From the UHGV virus genome UHGV-0242872: a stretch of 45,782 nucleotides of DNA, one strand, 5' to 3'. The notes beneath the pieces were generated by a model. That model did not search any database. It saw nothing but the letters and a program-made list of their open reading frames with translations, and was not told the origin of the DNA. Within the stretch, counting starts at the first letter, position 1. Each line of letters begins with the position of its first letter. A program made the position numbers and the translations under genes. Source of the DNA: a virus. Below are positions 1,922 through 45,742 of this stretch, one piece after another.

Positions 1922-1950
1922 AAGGGGACTTCGGTCCCCTTTTCTTTTAC
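1922..1950 (+). terminator. intrinsic terminator after capsid gene
   Basis: AAGGGGAC-TTCG-GTCCCCTT hairpin followed by TTCTTTT. Confidence 0.75.
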
Positions 1951-6306: not shown

Positions 6307-6333
6307 AAGGCCCCTTTCGGGGCCTTTTTCTTA
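6307..6333. terminator. bidirectional intrinsic terminator
   Basis: AAGGCCCC-TTTC-GGGGCCTT hairpin with U-tract; lies between convergent genes ending at 6302 (+) and 6331 (-). Confidence 0.8.
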
Positions 6334-8801: not shown

Positions 8802-8908
8802 GTAGTGTGCTAGAATAATTTTGCGCCTAGTGTCGCACACGAAAAGCGGGTGGTTCCCGTCTGGCGCATTTCCTTTAACCAGTAACCTCTTAACCAAAGG
8901 ATTAAAGA

Positions 8909-9325
8909 ATGAAACTTTCTGATTTTTATTACGAAGCGGAAGCCGAAAAGGGCGCACGTATGCCGATACCGCTAAAAGACGGTACTGATTCCGGGGAATG
9001 GCTTAATGTTGTTTCTCCTGAGGCGGACGTTGCCGTTAAGGCTATGCGCGCGTTCACCCTTGCATACCGGGCAGTATTAGGGAAATTAAAACCGCTTCGT
9101 GATAAGTGCGAAGAGATGAAAGATTTCTCTGAATACAACCTGAAGATGGAAGACGCGGCGACGGACCTTAACCGTCAGTTAGCGATTGAATTGGTTAACG
9201 GGTGGAGCCTTGACGACGAATTCAATAAAGAGAATCTGAACACACTCCTGACGCAATATAAACGACTCGCGGAACTTGTTGTTGTGTTTCATAACGAACA
9301 ACTGCACCAGCTACAGGAAAAGTAG
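8909..9325 (+). CDS. putative tail assembly chaperone (G-like)
   Basis: 138 aa ORF immediately upstream of tape measure gene; ends EK* on the slippery sequence GGAAAAG-TAG. Confidence 0.45.
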   Translation: MKLSDFYYEAEAEKGARMPIPLKDGTDSGEWLNVVSPEADVAVKAMRAFTLAYRAVLGKLKPLRDKCEEMKDFSEYNLKMEDAATDLNRQLAIELVNGWSLDDEFNKENLNTLLTQYKRLAELVVVFHNEQLHQLQEK

Positions 9326-9690: not shown

Positions 9691-12022
9691 TGTAGCTAGT
9701 TTAGTAGTAAAAGTAACAGAGCAAGGCGCGAAAGCCACATCAGACCGTCTTGACAACCTTTCAAAGTCCGCAAAAGTAGCGGGGGCCGCCGTAGCAGGCC
9801 TTGCTTCTATCGTAGCGGCTACCGCGTATAAAGCTGCCCAAGAACTGGTTGACTCACAGCGGCAACTGGACAAGATGTCCGCCAGTTTGAAGACCTTAAC
9901 AGGAAGTACCCAAGGTGCTAAACAGGCGCTAAGTATCCTGCAAGATTTTGCCCGCGATACCCCATACGGACTGGAGCAGGCGGTGGAAGGCTTCCGTAAG
10001 CTGGTGGCCCTTGGCCTTACCCCATCCGAGGAGGCGTTGCGGTCCTACGGCAATACCGCATCGGCTATGGGCAAGGACCTTAATCAGATGATTGAGGCGG
10101 TAGCCGACGCCAGTACGTTTGAGTTCGAACGCCTAAAAGAATTCGGCATCAAAGCCAAGCAGAACAAAAACGACGTAGAGTTTACATTCCAGGGGACAAC
10201 AACCGTAGTTAAGAAAAGCGCTGCCGATATTGAGCAGTATTTACTTAATATTGGTAACGTAAATTTTGCCGGTGCCATGGCGGACCAGGCCAACACCCTT
10301 AATGGCGCTATCGCGAGCGCCAGTGACTCATGGTCGCAGCTAAAAATGACGCTTGCCACCAGTCTTGATGTTGGCGCACTTGCGGAACCTATCAGGTATA
10401 TCGATGACTTGATCCAGGAATTAAATGCGTCTGTTGCTTCCGGTGAATTAGCCGCTGAAATGCAGATGTGGGGCGACATAGCGTCGGAAGTAGGAAGCGC
10501 TATCGAGATGTCATTCGACGCTGCGTTTGGCTTTGTTGGTGATGCCATCAACGGGCTTAATGAACTGTGGGATTTCAGCAGCAAGAGTATTACCGATAGC
10601 GGAGAACAAACGGCCACCACCATCGCTGAATCCGCCGCCGATGCTCTTGACTTCATCGCGGAAGAGTTCACCGCGATGGAGAGATTCTTTGAAGATATGG
10701 TTAAAGGTGCTCAGGACGCTGGCCGTCTTGTACGCGCCGCTTTTACCCCCGGGGAATCAGTAGACGTAGCTAAAAATATCAACTTCCAGCTTGGCATGGC
10801 TTTGGATACCCAGCGCGATGTCGCCGACGTTACGCGTAAAAGTTTCCGCGAACAGGTAGAAGCTCAACAGGATATTGTAGCGTTAAAACGCGCGGCGTAT
10901 GACATCGATAAGGAGTCCGCAAAAGCTGAGGGGTTAAACAAATTTAAGGTAACCGGAACCGGCGGCGGTTCTGACGATGACGGGTCAGCCGCAAAAGCCG
11001 CTAAGAAAGCAGCGGACGCGTTCGAGCGCCAGAAAAAGGCGGCGGAAGACTTCTACTATCAGTCAATCCATCTTAATGATGACGTATTTCAGAAAATAGA
11101 AGCTAACCAGGAAGAGCAACTGTCTAAGTTGCAGGATTTTTATAGCAATAAGCTTCTTAGCGACCAACAGTACGAAAACGCCAAGACGCAGATTATGCTC
11201 TCTGCCGAACAGGCCCGCCAGGAAGAACTGGACAAGAAAAGGAAAGAAGCCCAGGAGAAGCAGCAGAAAGGTGATGATTTCATGGCTCAGATTATGGGCC
11301 AGAACGCCGCTGAGCTTGAGCTTCTTAACATTCAGGAACAGCAGAAACTGTCGGTAGCAGATAAGTACCGCGAGCAGGGTTTGATTAGTGAGAAGCAGTA
11401 TCAGGCCGCGCTTAACGCCATCAACGAGCAGTACGCAACCAAGCGTGCCGACGCAACGGCAACAGCTTTCGGTAACATGGCCTCAAACATCGGGTCTGCG
11501 TTGGGCGAGGCTTCTGGCGCGTATAAGGCATTCGCTATCGTACAGGCTACTATAGCCACGTACACCGCAGCTATTGAGGCATACAAGTCAACGGCCGCTA
11601 TCCCTGTAGTTGGCCCGTTCCTGGCCCCTGTAGCCGCTGCCGCTGCCGTCGGGGCAGGTATGGCGCAGATTTCCGCTATCAGGTCAGCACGTGAACAGGG
11701 TGGACAGTTATCCGCCGGGCAGGCTTCCACCATCGCTGAACGCGGTAAACCCGAAGTTATCATGCCCGCTGGCGCATCGCGTGTGCGCACCGCGCAGCAG
11801 ATGAAAGAAATTATGGGGCAAAACGGGTCTTCTTCCGGCCCATCTAATGTTACCATTGTAAATAATACATCGAGTCAGATTGGCAACGTATCCACCGAGC
11901 AGGATGATGAAGGCCGTCTGCGTATCATCATAGAAGAGCAAGTTGCTGCATCTTTGCAGAACAGCAACAGTAAGATTAGCAAGGCCCGCAAGGCCACAAG
12001 AAACGCGCCGGGGTTTAAATAA
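9683..12022 (+). CDS. tail tape measure protein
   Basis: 779 aa, long helical low-complexity protein in canonical position. Confidence 0.85.
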   Translation: MADVASLVVKVTEQGAKATSDRLDNLSKSAKVAGAAVAGLASIVAATAYKAAQELVDSQRQLDKMSASLKTLTGSTQGAKQALSILQDFARDTPYGLEQAVEGFRKLVALGLTPSEEALRSYGNTASAMGKDLNQMIEAVADASTFEFERLKEFGIKAKQNKNDVEFTFQGTTTVVKKSAADIEQYLLNIGNVNFAGAMADQANTLNGAIASASDSWSQLKMTLATSLDVGALAEPIRYIDDLIQELNASVASGELAAEMQMWGDIASEVGSAIEMSFDAAFGFVGDAINGLNELWDFSSKSITDSGEQTATTIAESAADALDFIAEEFTAMERFFEDMVKGAQDAGRLVRAAFTPGESVDVAKNINFQLGMALDTQRDVADVTRKSFREQVEAQQDIVALKRAAYDIDKESAKAEGLNKFKVTGTGGGSDDDGSAAKAAKKAADAFERQKKAAEDFYYQSIHLNDDVFQKIEANQEEQLSKLQDFYSNKLLSDQQYENAKTQIMLSAEQARQEELDKKRKEAQEKQQKGDDFMAQIMGQNAAELELLNIQEQQKLSVADKYREQGLISEKQYQAALNAINEQYATKRADATATAFGNMASNIGSALGEASGAYKAFAIVQATIATYTAAIEAYKSTAAIPVVGPFLAPVAAAAAVGAGMAQISAIRSAREQGGQLSAGQASTIAERGKPEVIMPAGASRVRTAQQMKEIMGQNGSSSGPSNVTIVNNTSSQIGNVSTEQDDEGRLRIIIEEQVAASLQNSNSKISKARKATRNAPGFK

Positions 12023-19031: not shown

Positions 19032-19058
19032 AAGGCCCCAAACGGGGCCTTTTCTCTA
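19032..19058. terminator. bidirectional intrinsic terminator
   Basis: AAGGCCCC-AAAC-GGGGCCTT hairpin with T-run; closes structural operon and leftward early operon. Confidence 0.75.
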
Positions 19059-31487: not shown

Positions 31488-31666
31488 TTCACGTTCTCCT
31501 TAATCCATGCTTCAACTTTATTACGGTCAAATGTTCCTGGTAAACGGCGACCCATAACCTTAATACAGCAATCAGGGAATTTACCGCTGCGCAACCAGTT
31601 ATTAATTGTTTGACGTGTCACCCCGATACGTTCAGCCACTTCATTCTGTGTCATGTAATGCTGCAT
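31484..31666 (-). CDS. AlpA/excisionase-like HTH DNA-binding protein
   Basis: ATG 31666 with AGGAG SD (track ORF extends to 31738); HTH TQNEVAERIGVTRQTINNWL. Confidence 0.6.
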   Translation of the reverse strand: MQHYMTQNEVAERIGVTRQTINNWLRSGKFPDCCIKVMGRRLPGTFDRNKVEAWIKENVK

Positions 31667-31697
31667 TTTTATATCTCCTGTTTGTTTGGTGAAAACG

Positions 31698-31726
31698 AGT
31701 ATAGGATAGCGTGAATGTAAAAGCAA
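31698..31726 (-). promoter_or_regulatory. sigma70-like promoter TTGCTT-N17-TATACT for primase-helicase operon
   Basis: minus-strand hexamers with 17-nt spacing upstream of the HTH gene. Confidence 0.5.
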
Positions 31727-31773
31727 CCAAAACACCACACAAAGTTACTAATATACAAAAGATGCTAATGGTA

Positions 31774-31802
31774 TTGACTTTTACTAAGAAATGTGCTAAG
31801 CT
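31774..31802 (+). promoter_or_regulatory. strong extended -10 promoter TTGACT-N17-TGcTAAGCT driving structured RNA copy 1
   Basis: -35 at 31774-31779, TG at 31794-31795, -10 at 31797-31802. Confidence 0.6.
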
Positions 31803-31808
31803 CCACCT

Positions 31809-31915
31809 GAGCTTGTGAAGTATGAACAAGCGACCGCGGTGCGGCAGGAAACGGAGCGGTGCGTCAGCACTGAGTGTAGTGTCGCTGCCTGCATTCGGAA
31901 GGGCCATAATCTATT
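31809..31915 (+). ncRNA. structured RNA element, copy 1 (function unknown; candidate antitermination or regulatory RNA)
   Basis: about 107 nt starting at predicted TSS; paralogous to 45138-45245; hairpin GCUUGU-N9-ACAAGC; compensatory base-pair changes between copies; no ORF. Confidence 0.45.
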
Positions 31916-32003
31916 GTAAATCCCGTCTAAATAACCCAAGTCACTAATAATTAAAAGTTTCTATAGTTGCCGTAAGCAAGGTAGAGAGTACTTCACTCCG
32001 CTG

Positions 32004-32023
32004 GGGTGGGCTAAAGCCCACCC
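32004..32023 (+). terminator. stable hairpin downstream of RNA copy 1 (possible attenuator)
   Basis: GGGTGGGC-TAAA-GCCCACCC, no canonical U-tract. Confidence 0.3.
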
Positions 32024-32082
32024 GCTGCGTTGCGTACTCTTTAAAGAAACAAAAGAATCACAACGGCAACGTAACTATTCTC

Positions 32083-32111
32083 TTGCACACCCCAACATAA
32101 TAGGATACTAT
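32083..32111 (+). promoter_or_regulatory. sigma70-like promoter TTGCAC-N17-TACTAT (rightward early)
   Basis: palindrome AATAG-gata-CTATT 32099-32112 overlaps the -10. Confidence 0.6.
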
Positions 32112-32145
32112 TCACTTATCGAAACGAGACAGAGGAGTGAGGGTT

Positions 32146-32331
32146 ATGTTTAAGAAGGGTCAGTTGGTTAAAACTAAACGCGGCGGACAGTACGTAATAG
32201 TTACCCAGAATGAGGATGAATATAGTACCGCTGTAGACGTATGGGGTCTTGTACGAAAGAAACATGGTTACGCTTTCAGAGATAATTTAACACTCATCGG
32301 CAACAATTTTAAATTCAAAGGGGTGAAGTGA
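32146..32331 (+). CDS. hypothetical early protein (61 aa)
   Basis: ATG 32146 with AGAGGAG SD (track ORF opens on GTG 32137). Confidence 0.45.
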   Translation: MFKKGQLVKTKRGGQYVIVTQNEDEYSTAVDVWGLVRKKHGYAFRDNLTLIGNNFKFKGVK

Positions 32332-42046: not shown

Positions 42047-42072
42047 AGAAAAAGGCCCCGTTATGGGGCCTT
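42047..42072. terminator. hairpin terminator (stronger on minus strand)
   Basis: AGGCCCC-GTTAT-GGGGCCT; U-tract lies on the minus-strand side. Confidence 0.55.
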
Positions 42073-42075
42073 AGC

Positions 42076-42249
42076 TTATGCGTCTCTACTCGCCAGATAA
42101 TCACAGCGGGCTATGGCTAAGTCTAAGCTACTGTATGCGCTATCTGTTTTAGCGTGGGTGAACCCCGAAATCATTACGTGGTACACGCCTTTATCGTTTA
42201 GAACCCAGTATTTACCATTTTCGTGCATTATGTCTTTTTCTTTGAACAT
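42076..42249 (-). CDS. hypothetical protein (57 aa)
   Basis: ATG 42249 with AGGAG SD; driven by minus-strand TTGCAG-N17-TACTAT promoter. Confidence 0.4.
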   Translation of the reverse strand: MFKEKDIMHENGKYWVLNDKGVYHVMISGFTHAKTDSAYSSLDLAIARCDYLASRDA

Positions 42250-42296
42250 TTTTCATCTCCTGTTTAAGTTAACTGAATAGTACCCTATTATATTGG
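42246..42296 (+). repeat. 51-nt direct repeat, copy 1 (promoter, operator and SD of a minus-strand small gene)
   Basis: 50/51 identical to 44977-45027. Confidence 0.8.
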
Positions 42297-42305
42297 TGTC
42301 TGCAA
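42277..42305 (-). promoter_or_regulatory. sigma70-like promoter TTGCAG-N17-TACTAT
   Basis: minus strand; palindrome AATAG-tacc-CTATT 42276-42289 overlaps the -10; part of 51-nt repeat. Confidence 0.5.
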
Positions 42306-42349
42306 ATATTATTTTTATGCGTTACACTGGCGATACTACAGGAGGGCAC

Positions 42350-44748: not shown

Positions 44749-44752
44749 TAAA

Positions 44753-44778
44753 AGGCCCCGTAAGGGGCCTTAGTTTTC
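44753..44778 (+). terminator. intrinsic terminator
   Basis: AGGCCCC-GTAA-GGGGCCT hairpin followed by TAGTTTTC. Confidence 0.7.
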
Positions 44779-44980
44779 AACGGAATCTTGTGTTTAAATC
44801 CTGCTCATGGACAACCCTCAGAACAGTGTCATAATCCCCGTATCTTCCAGGTTCAAATATATCTAATGCCTTGTAAGCAGACATTGCGTCAGGGAAAACC
44901 TGCAGAACCTTTTTAACCCGGCACAAGTCACCGTCGAACTCTTCATCGAACTCTTGAACTACTTCGCAAATTGCATACAT
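44777..44980 (-). CDS. hypothetical acidic protein (67 aa)
   Basis: ATG 44980 with AGGAGG SD; driven by minus-strand TTGCAC-N17-TACTAT promoter. Confidence 0.45.
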   Translation of the reverse strand: MYAICEVVQEFDEEFDGDLCRVKKVLQVFPDAMSAYKALDIFEPGRYGDYDTVLRVVHEQDLNTRFR

Positions 44981-45027
44981 TTTTCACCTCCTGTTTAAGT
45001 TAACTGAATAGTACCCTATTATATTGG
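44977..45027 (+). repeat. 51-nt direct repeat, copy 2
   Basis: 50/51 identical to 42246-42296; the pair brackets the head-morphogenesis/intein/Ig-like segment. Confidence 0.8.
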
Positions 45028-45036
45028 GGTGTGCAA
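45008..45036 (-). promoter_or_regulatory. sigma70-like promoter TTGCAC-N17-TACTAT
   Basis: minus strand; palindrome AATAG-tacc-CTATT 45007-45020 overlaps the -10; part of 51-nt repeat. Confidence 0.55.
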
Positions 45037-45089
45037 ACTATTTATTTACGTATTCCAGTTATTCCACCGAATTGTAAATGTTGGAATAA

Positions 45090-45103
45090 ACTATTCGAAT
45101 AGT
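45090..45103. promoter_or_regulatory. perfect 14-bp palindrome ACTATTCGAATAGT abutting the -35 of the RNA copy 2 promoter
   Basis: same half-sites as the AATAG-N4-CTATT operator but everted. Confidence 0.35.
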
Positions 45104-45131
45104 TGACTTTTCACTAAAAATATGATAAGCT
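45103..45131 (+). promoter_or_regulatory. strong extended -10 promoter TTGACT-N17-TGaTAAGCT driving structured RNA copy 2
   Basis: -35 at 45103-45108, TG at 45123-45124, -10 at 45126-45131. Confidence 0.6.
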
Positions 45132-45137
45132 CCACCT

Positions 45138-45245
45138 GAGCTTGTGAAGTATGAACAAGCGACCGCGGCGCGGGCAGGTAACGGAGCGGGACGTAAGTCC
45201 TGAGTGTAGTTACGCTGACGCGTTCGGAAGGGCCATACTCTATTG
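45138..45245 (+). ncRNA. structured RNA element, copy 2
   Basis: first 43 nt identical to copy 1 from the -10 onward; inner stem GGAC-GUAA-GUCC replaces GUGC-GUCA-GCAC of copy 1. Confidence 0.45.
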
Positions 45246-45311
45246 CTTGTGTAAAAAGTAACTGGTTTACTGAGATTACGCCGTTTCTATGTTTAAATGA
45301 TAAGGACTAGC

Positions 45312-45339
45312 GCCCCGCTTTAAGGCGGGGCTTTACTTA
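45312..45339 (+). terminator. intrinsic terminator downstream of RNA copy 2
   Basis: GCCCCGC-TTTAAG-GCGGGGC hairpin followed by TTTACTTA. Confidence 0.65.
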
Positions 45340-45355
45340 TCGAGAAAGGAGAAAC

Positions 45356-45742
45356 ATGAATCTTAAAGCAACCGTCGTAGCAGGAGCATGTTTCATCATC
45401 CTGGCTTACACACACGGCATTTATCAGTACCGCAGCGGCTGGCACGAAGGCCGCGCTAATCTCGTTTCGCAGCAACAGCAGAAAGCGCAGGCTGAGTTAG
45501 CGAAGAAAACACAACGGCAGCAGCAGGACGAATCGAAGGCAGCCGCCGCTGACAACGAAGGCAAGACGAAATCAGAGGTGATTACCCGTGAAGTCGTTAA
45601 GTACATTAGAACGCCTGGTCGCAGCGTGTGCACTTTTGACCCTGAGCGCGTGCAGCTCAAGTCCCGCGCCGTCGCAAACGCCAATTCCATCCCCGGATAT
45701 GACAATGATGCAGCCGCCGTGCAAGCTGGCGCTGCCAAGTAG
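45356..45742 (+). CDS. i-spanin (Rz-like)
   Basis: AAAGGAG SD; N-terminal TM helix then Gln/Ala-rich periplasmic region; embedded +1 lipoprotein ORF. Confidence 0.6.
   Translation: MNLKATVVAGACFIILAYTHGIYQYRSGWHEGRANLVSQQQQKAQAELAKKTQRQQQDESKAAAADNEGKTKSEVITREVVKYIRTPGRSVCTFDPERVQLKSRAVANANSIPGYDNDAAAVQAGAAK

Follow-up and report, generated by a model that had tools for sequence, protein, structure and literature searches.

To our knowledge, antiterminator RNAs that work independently of protein factors are known essentially from the lineage of the HK022 put sites and from the eps-associated RNA (EAR) of Bacillus. The two put antiterminator RNAs of HK022, putL and putR, were reportedly characterized by King and colleagues in 1996. 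Put acts in cis and without protein factors through the zinc-binding domain of the RNA polymerase β′ subunit, suppressing both pausing and termination, and it is blocked by rpoC mutants in that domain such as Y75N; for EAR and other cis-acting processive antitermination leaders a bypass of internal terminators by the polymerase has been proposed or shown. A cryo-EM structure of the HK022 put RNA is available (PMC9378689).

The window analyzed here, meaning the whole 45.8 kb stretch of DNA, is the complete genome of a Kagunavirus-like siphovirus (Guernseyvirinae), an E. coli phage whose closest record, OR594183.1, is 99.8-100% identical around the locus of interest. An operon map was assembled from the OR594183.1 annotation, an ORF scan and a terminator scan.

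~19-31.7 kb, minus strand: leftward replication cluster
from 31.8 kb past the window end, plus strand: early rightward unit, with small early genes, holin, endolysin and small terminase
from 45.1 kb past the window end, plus strand: late rightward unit, with spanins, scaffold, major capsid, connector and tail genes
8.9-19 kb, plus strand: third rightward unit, with tail genes

Beyond the wrap, the early rightward unit continues into large terminase, portal and head morphogenesis genes. A structured leader element stands at the head of both the early and the late rightward units, behind promoters that serve operons of 12-19 kb. The initial annotation had proposed one copy for each early transcription unit, which does not hold, as copy 2 heads the late operon of spanin, scaffold, capsid and tail genes. 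The third unit has a leader of another kind. The sole Rfam match in the window to reach its gathering score, an int-alpA RNA (RF02996) at 8820-8884 on the plus strand (36.6 bits; gathering score 35.8), lies directly 3′ of an extended -10 promoter-like TGcTAGAAT (8809-8817) at the head of this tail operon, with the tail chaperone ATG at 8910. The match is also found in OR594183.1, and at gathering score there is none in Jersey or K1H. Because of it, all three rightward late-type units can be said to start with a promoter and a structured leader.

The element is about 110 nt long and adopts the same layout in the minimum-energy folds of both copies: a 6-bp hairpin (P1) from +3, a 2-nt linker, a long P2-P3-P4 hairpin and a single-stranded tail, AAGGGCCAUAnUCUAUUG. 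P2 is made of 3+6 bp with one bulged C, P3 of 3+5 bp with a bulged G, and P4 of 6 bp with a tetraloop; with the 4x6 internal loop (GGAG / AGUGUA), P2-P4 amount to a ~23-bp interrupted helix with a conserved asymmetric internal loop.

31809-31916, plus strand: leader RNA element copy 1, type B (minimum-energy fold, covariance-model match of 127.9 bits, pair counts, RNAalifold)
31811-31816/31826-31831, plus strand: copy 1 P1, then linker GA
31834-31836/31896-31898 and 31838-31842/31891-31895, plus strand: copy 1 P2, with bulged C31837
31845-31852/31879-31887, plus strand: copy 1 P3
31853-31856 (GGAG) / 31873-31878 (AGUGUA), plus strand: copy 1 internal loop
31857-31862/31867-31872, plus strand: copy 1 P4, loop GUCA
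31899-31916, plus strand: copy 1 conserved tail
45138-45245, plus strand: leader RNA element copy 2, type A (covariance-model match of 146.6 bits; identical in 18 loci)
45140-45145/45155-45160, plus strand: copy 2 P1
45163-45165/45225-45227 and 45167-45172/45219-45224, plus strand: copy 2 P2
45175-45182/45209-45217, plus strand: copy 2 P3
45183-45186/45203-45208, plus strand: copy 2 internal loop
45187-45192/45197-45202, plus strand: copy 2 P4, loop GUAA
45228-45245, plus strand: copy 2 tail

The two copies share 43 identical nucleotides (31797-31839 and 45126-45168; repeat families D4 and D9). The initial annotation had reported this identity but let it begin at the transcription start, when in fact the -10 hexamer is where it starts. 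Two longer words of the element, one of 27 and the other of 20 nt, are each present exactly twice in the window where 0 would be expected, and thus the duplication is not due to chance. The proposed shared 5′ hairpin, GCUUGU-N9-ACAAGC, was found in both copies (31811-31831 and 45140-45160). The copies were also said to diverge in a way that preserves pairing, and they do: of ~14 nucleotide differences, 8 fall in four pairs that remain paired, one in P2 (U-A in copy 1, C-G in copy 2), one in P3 (A-U versus U-A) and two adjacent pairs in P4 (GUGC/GCAC versus GGAC/GUCC). The folding energy of the single sequences is not unusual (z = -0.7 and -1.1), so the support for the structure comes from comparison and covariation, not from stability. 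Two tertiary motifs were considered, and neither gained support. Pairing of the P1 loop (GUAUG) with the tail (CAUAC) as a pseudoknot, inspected by eye, is broken in type C, and the variable tail position is unconstrained; in the GGAG/AGUGUA loop, the order of strands and bulges does not fit a canonical K-turn or sarcin-ricin motif.

Homologues were collected from IMG/VR, GenBank phages, species genomes and metagenomes, and were aligned with a covariance model of the element (R1). They fall into five sequence types, where A is copy 2, B is copy 1, C and D are alternative early copies and E is the late Jerseyvirus copy. Among 33 distinct sequences, 94.1% of pair cells hold standard pairs, as compared to 28-41% in slid controls in which the 3′ partners were shifted by 1-3 columns. 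Changes on both sides were seen in 18 of the 29 pairs in this set; over this and a smaller alignment they number 12-18 of 29, with slid controls at 27-41%. The covariation score was 0.378 for the same 33 sequences versus 0.123 after shuffling, with none of 500 shuffles as high, and RNAalifold recovered P1-P4 independently from the same alignment with 14 of its 23 pairs compensated. The covariation that the initial annotation looked for in a larger alignment thus rises above background.

Variation is distributed unevenly over the fold. The sequence and length of P4 are entirely different in each type, one position of P3 is U-A, A-U or G-C, and one pair of P2 is U-A, C-G or A-U. For P1, the compensatory evidence comes from type E alone. 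In contrast to these variable positions, 7 of the 9 P2 pairs are invariant across the five types, including two tandem G.U pairs; the flanks ACCGCGG...UUCGGAAGGG are invariant as well, the tail is almost so, and the internal-loop nucleotides RAG / AGYGUA are conserved. Because both invariant G.U pairs would turn into C.A mismatches if the opposite strand were transcribed, it is the plus-strand RNA that is singled out as the selected structure. As read from these alignments, a folded RNA under structural selection, which the initial annotation had suggested, is strongly supported. Constraint extends over the whole late leader, which is 96-99.6% identical from +1 to +219 among 21 distinct type A loci, as compared to 91.6% for the spanin gene behind it and 65% for the DNA upstream.

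Two natural variants were found in related phages. In Salmonella phage SLMP1 (NC_073208.1; locus L189, 481-547), a clean 42-nt deletion takes out exactly P3-P4 and spares P1, P2 and the tail; either the variant is genuine and viable or the assembly is at fault. In Cornellvirus FSL SP-031 (L190, 25487-25600), only ACCGCG-CGGAAGGGUCGGAAUCU is recognizable at the homologous site of the late leader (10.4 bits, E = 0.67). Different small hairpins lie ahead of this ACCGCG..CGGAAGGGUC stretch, the overall fold is no better than that of shuffled sequences, and the leader may be either what is left of the element or a pared-down form of it. Since the one lacks P3-P4 and the other keeps ACCGCG..CGGAAGGGUC, P2 and the tail are indicated as the core.

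The late copy was found in GenBank phage records 181 times as type A and 268 times as type E. As ~460 records carry a capsid protein at least 89% identical, followed by relatives at 42%, essentially every Kagunavirus and Jerseyvirus genome has the late copy, and the family is present in about 450 genomes of these two genera. In the Cornellvirus genome examined, only the short late-copy remnant of FSL SP-031 was seen. Beyond the Guernseyvirinae, a scan of 100,044 species genomes yielded just two matches, both on phage-contaminant contigs, and a scan of metagenomes returned the same types. These pattern scans demanded the conserved core, and very divergent relatives would escape them.

In contrast to the universal late copy, the early copy is an optional, swappable module. 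In K1H and Jersey it is absent or replaced, the early slot being occupied by unrelated leaders that the element model does not detect. These modules (Jersey, L138, 38860-39150; K1H, L182, 34880-35100) also consist of a promoter and a leader. The Jersey early leader folds strongly (z = -3.2) into a hairpin at its 5′ end and a long one, and may be a non-homologous functional analogue of the element. In one locus (L049), a type B core occupies the late site, indicating exchange between early and late sites. The first gene after the early leader (32146-32331, plus strand) encodes a lysine/arginine-rich protein of 61 aa that belongs to phrog_12538 and has no Pfam match; it keeps its place in types B, C and D, in K1H and in Jersey despite the differing leaders ahead of it.

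Two classes of promoter could be distinguished in the genome.

31774..31802, plus strand: class II promoter of copy 1 (-35 TTGACT 31774-31779, 17-nt spacer, extended -10 TGcTAAGCT 31794-31802), read directly, homologous to the copy 2 promoter and conserved in relatives
45103..45131, plus strand: class II promoter of copy 2 (-35 TTGACT 45103-45108, 17-nt spacer, extended -10 TGaTAAGCT 45123-45131), read directly, conserved in 20+ loci with variation confined to the spacer
32083..32111, plus strand: class I promoter TTGCAC-N17-TACTAT with an operator-like palindrome, AATAG-N4-CTATT, in the spacer, strongly conserved in relatives
45059-45089, no strand assigned: inverted repeat TTATTCCA-N15-TGGAATAA, centered at ~-64 from the late start
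45089-45104, no strand assigned: perfect 16-bp palindrome AACTATTC/GAATAGTT (AACTATTCGAATAGTT), overlapping the late -35

Class II, TTGACT-N17-TGnTAAGCT followed by the element, occurs only twice in the genome. The extended -10 promoter that had been proposed for copy 1, with a start near 31809, is indeed present; the predicted starts are G31809, ~7 nt past the promoter, and G45138. Every copy of types A-D starts at ~+1 to +3 of such a near-consensus extended -10 promoter, the spacer of which is not conserved between Kagunavirus and Jerseyvirus. The start of type E is uncertain. Its -10 hexamer, TACGCT, is duplicated, and for this reason its P1 hairpin may include bases upstream of the real start.

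Class I promoters serve the replication cluster, where they provide three internal starts, as well as the small leftward genes and the first early genes transcribed rightward; the promoter at 32083..32111 lies directly ahead of the first of the latter (ATG 32146). The AATAG-N4-CTATT palindrome occurs at 8 sites in the window (8772, 21763, 25720, 28318, 32099, 33223, 42276 and 45007; repeat families D2 and D3) as compared to 0.02 expected. Wherever the flanks were read or scanned, it lies within the spacer of a sigma-70-type promoter, such as TTGACA-N17-TATAGT or TTGCAC-N17-TACTAT, and it is probably the operator of a phage regulator for early genes in both directions. An 81-nt direct repeat (42246-42326 and 44977-45057; 85% identity) spans a class I promoter, ribosome-binding site and first codons of two small leftward genes; these are inserted into rightward units, each with its own terminator, and look moron-like.

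The inverted repeat upstream of the late promoter is conserved in Jersey (L138, 7232-7260) with a changed arm end, and copy 1 has no counterpart of it upstream; the repeat probably binds an activator or repressor of the late promoter. As this promoter has upstream DNA operators of its own, timing could be set at initiation, leaving a post-initiation role to the RNA. Promoter scans and a reading of the 45246-45356 leader gave no other convincing promoter for the late genes.

The transcripts from these promoters would meet several hairpins.

31917..32023, plus strand: spacer and GC-rich hairpin GGGUGGGC-UAAA-GCCCACCC (hairpin 32004-32023), from the early-leader alignment, no U-tract
45312..45331, plus strand: terminator-like hairpin GCCCCGC-UUUAAG-GCGGGGC, then UUUACUUAUC, the top-ranked plus-strand terminator-like site
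1922..1941, plus strand: strong intrinsic terminator directly behind the major capsid gene, within the copy 2 operon
6307-6326, plus strand: second terminator in the late operon, after a tail protein gene ('minor tail protein' in L001)

The hairpin that had been noted downstream of copy 1 is present, but lacks a U-tract. Such a hairpin follows each leader, ~175-195 nt downstream of the start, and is either kept by compensation or swapped for an unrelated GC hairpin. At the place of the 32004-32023 hairpin, type D relatives have the unrelated GGUGCC-UUCG-GGCACC, and K1H keeps the early hairpin without the element, under a different leader. The 45312 hairpin, which ends 25 nt before the spanin start codon (45357), covaries in Jerseyviruses (GCCCGGC/GCCGGGC and GCCCGAC/GUCGGGC). 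A proper U-tract is usually missing: the site after the late Kagunavirus copy is terminator-like, whereas the hairpins of copy 1 and of the Jerseyvirus leaders, where the U-tract is poor, lack one. A counterpart of the capsid terminator (stem AAGGGGAC/GTCCCCTT) occupies the same position in Jersey (9859-9876), where its stem is a different one. In all, the late operon combines one promoter with three plus-strand terminator-like sites (45312, 1922 and 6307), whereas the leftward replication cluster has three internal promoters and no strong internal terminator. Near-identical AAGGCCCC-loop-GGGGCCTT hairpins at 6307-6326, 19032-19051, 42052-42072 and 44752-44771 mark unit ends, and the one at 6307 scores as a terminator on both strands.

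Known identities were searched for with covariance models and protein profiles. The Rfam comparison suggested in the initial annotation was carried out, and the element matches no family: a gathering scan of the whole window with Rfam 15 gave nothing at the element, and a scan of 31500-32300 at E<=10 gave nothing over 31809-31916 and just chance snoRNA/sRNA fragments upstream. The annotation had also raised a relation to HK022 put, of which the homology falls and a plausible analogy remains. The element model finds no match in HK022 at E<=10. A model of put (R2) based on putL and putR detects these two sites themselves at 90.6 and 78.7 bits and finds nothing at the element in the window, in Jersey or in K1H; with filters off over 31700-32100, it has no match inside 31809-31916. 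Covariance models in both directions thus rule out a put homologue.

A nut site of the lambda or rrn kind (boxA UGCUCUUUAACAA or CGCUCUUA plus hairpin) was likewise rejected. The best boxA-like site, at 32035, has 3 mismatches, sites at that level number 10 in the window versus 13 expected by chance, and it is not conserved in type D or in the late leaders. Pfam and PHROGs scans revealed no N-like protein, neither the adjacent HTH protein nor any of the eight genes that come first after copy 1 is recognizable as an N-, Q- or AlpA-like antiterminator, and the OR594183.1 annotation holds no recognizable antiterminator protein. The HTH protein was compared with an AlpA-type antitermination system (PMC9371919). 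Control of the Q/AlpA type through this neighboring gene was rejected, as its product has ~60 aa, only a generic HTH_17 domain and no N-terminal ring-forming segment; the -10-like AAGTAT at +10 is lost in type C. No description of the element was found in the literature, and the only Kagunavirus RNA-seq paper reports gene-level counts of annotated genes only (PMC12645636; its infection data are public as PRJNA939978 / PRJCA028359). The RNA family appears to be undescribed, while its kind, a structured regulatory leader, is familiar.

We favor, at a probability of roughly 40%, the reading that the element is a leader RNA acting in cis to render RNA polymerase resistant to pauses and terminators; that figure divides about evenly between a factor-independent (put-like) and a factor-dependent (nut-like) mode. 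The element would form the 5′ portion of the nascent RNA that two strong sigma-70 promoters produce, would fold co-transcriptionally into P1 and the P2-P3-P4 hairpin, and would then act in cis on the polymerase that made it, conferring the pause and termination resistance of processive antitermination. One promoter could in this manner express a 12-19 kb operon that contains hairpins and intrinsic terminators. The binding surface would be the invariant P2, with its tandem G.U pairs and bulged C, together with the P1-P2 junction and the AAGGG tail, and P3, P4 and the loops would serve as scaffold. The RNA may be bound by RNA polymerase itself, as with put, or by a conserved factor of phage or host origin that docks on it, as with nut; contact with the polymerase and an effect on termination are what we infer.

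Several observations point toward such a signal to the elongation complex. The element is promoter-proximal, its two paralogous copies stand at operon heads, and its covarying helices surround invariant junction and loop nucleotides; one promoter serves a long operon that contains terminators, and there is no recognizable antiterminator protein. The reading is further favored by selection for structure on the plus-strand RNA, by a late leader that is more conserved than the gene behind it, by the essential universality of the late copy in the subfamily, and by the contrast between the late operon, with its one promoter and three terminator-like sites, and the replication cluster with its internal promoters. 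Counted against antitermination are the lack of put or Rfam homology and the early hairpin that K1H keeps under a different leader. As the hairpins after the element lack good U-tracts in copy 1 and the Jerseyviruses, there is perhaps little nearby to antiterminate, and SLMP1 and the SP-031 remnant indicate that some genomes do without most of the fold. Terminators placed behind a capsid gene often bring about partial attenuation, which full antitermination would defeat, and read-through at 6307 would run antisense into leftward genes.

The narrower claim that the element represents a second class of RNA, unrelated in structure, that on its own turns E. coli or Salmonella RNA polymerase termination-resistant, an independent analogue of put that became fixed at the head of the Kagunavirus/Jerseyvirus late operon with P2 and the AAGGG tail as its core, is more speculative, and we consider it rather unlikely.

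Of the alternatives, the one that survives best is an RNA processing or stability element, in which P2-P3-P4 would be an RNase III-type site or the 5′ P1 would protect the mRNA from 5′-end-dependent decay. The ~23-bp interrupted helix with its asymmetric loop has a geometry that fits RNase III (about two turns), P1 sits at ~+3 of the transcript, and the GC hairpins conserved by compensation after each leader could be 3′ protective ends. However, RNase III sites and 5′ stabilizers need shape, and here 7 of 9 P2 pairs and the tail are invariant in sequence; P1 would be minimal or absent in Jersey-type RNAs if the start lies 7 nt after the -10, and SLMP1 does without P3-P4. We regard this explanation as unlikely.

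More doubtful is a leader-derived small RNA of ~110-200 nt, running from the start to the downstream hairpin and acting in trans on host or phage targets. Small RNAs are made from the PR′ leader of lambda or Stx phages, and a strong promoter, a structured domain, a conserved single-stranded tail and a hairpin ~175-195 nt downstream would suit one here; given the separate class I promoter after the early copy, copy 1 could even be a self-contained gene. But since no other late promoter is visible, transcription must pass the hairpin, which has no proper U-tract in copy 1 and the Jerseyviruses. The phage genome has no site complementary to the tail, and 5,426 complete E. coli genomes gave no match at E<=1 in a search to which short seed matches are invisible.

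Similarly doubtful is an operator for an RNA-binding protein that works outside elongation, in translational or autogenous control of the first late genes or in sequestration of a host protein. The invariant P2 with its tandem G.U pairs and bulged C, the purine-rich tail and the loop nucleotides RAG / AGYGUA, conserved across types, resemble a specific protein site, but the element lies ~220 nt upstream of the first start codon without overlapping a ribosome-binding site, and the Pfam/PHROGs scans identified no candidate for the protein. Finally, the view of the element as a signal in the DNA itself, whether operator, origin or packaging site, or as a gene for a small protein is effectively refuted: several GenBank records do annotate ORFs over the element, and, where the initial annotation saw none, there is a 41-aa ORF (31822-31947; 'hypothetical protein' in relatives), but no small ORF is conserved in the homologues, the frame shifting between types A and B, stops interrupting it in L004 and L007 and ATG missing in types C and E, and compensation between paired positions, like the unchanging G.U pairs, points specifically to the plus-strand RNA.

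If the antitermination reading is right, an unrelated fold in E. coli would offer a second system for how nascent RNA reprograms RNA polymerase, and the element would be a portable read-through part of small size. Irrespective of function, the RNA family is uncatalogued and strongly constrained; it stands at the start of a structural-gene operon in ~450 genomes of phages that are widely isolated for therapy and food biocontrol, and it is routinely mis-annotated as one or two hypothetical proteins. The natural P3-P4 deletion of SLMP1 is at hand for comparison, and standard E. coli reporters suit the element.

Among known systems, the early-mRNA RNase III sites of T7 (R1.1) resemble the element as irregular hairpins of ~60-70 nt in a phage leader with an asymmetric internal loop between stems; unlike the T7 sites, which are conserved in shape, its P2 and tail are invariant in sequence. 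The lambda PR′-qut-tR′ late leader (6S RNA) and AlpA systems share with the late copy a strong promoter, a ~200-nt leader and a hairpin or terminator before the late genes, but use a DNA-binding protein and a sigma-dependent pause, and no RNA fold (PMC9371919). EAR, like the element, is structured, conserved and transcribed as part of a very long operon, but lies inside that operon, belongs to Bacillales and is in Rfam, where the element matches nothing in release 15. HK022 put differs in sequence and structure, with no homology; the element is ~35 nt longer, lacks the GUCGGG junction, the GGAUGA loop and CAAUG, and belongs to a virulent siphovirus rather than a lambdoid phage, with one copy heading a late structural operon. 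The relation to put is one of analogy, not membership, and the analogy is extensive: in both cases, an E. coli phage with no recognizable antiterminator protein among the products examined carries two diverged paralogous copies of a promoter-proximal structured RNA of ~70-110 nt, each at the head of a long operon and each built from two adjacent stem-loop domains, most conserved at the junction and in the internal loops and variable at the hairpin tips.
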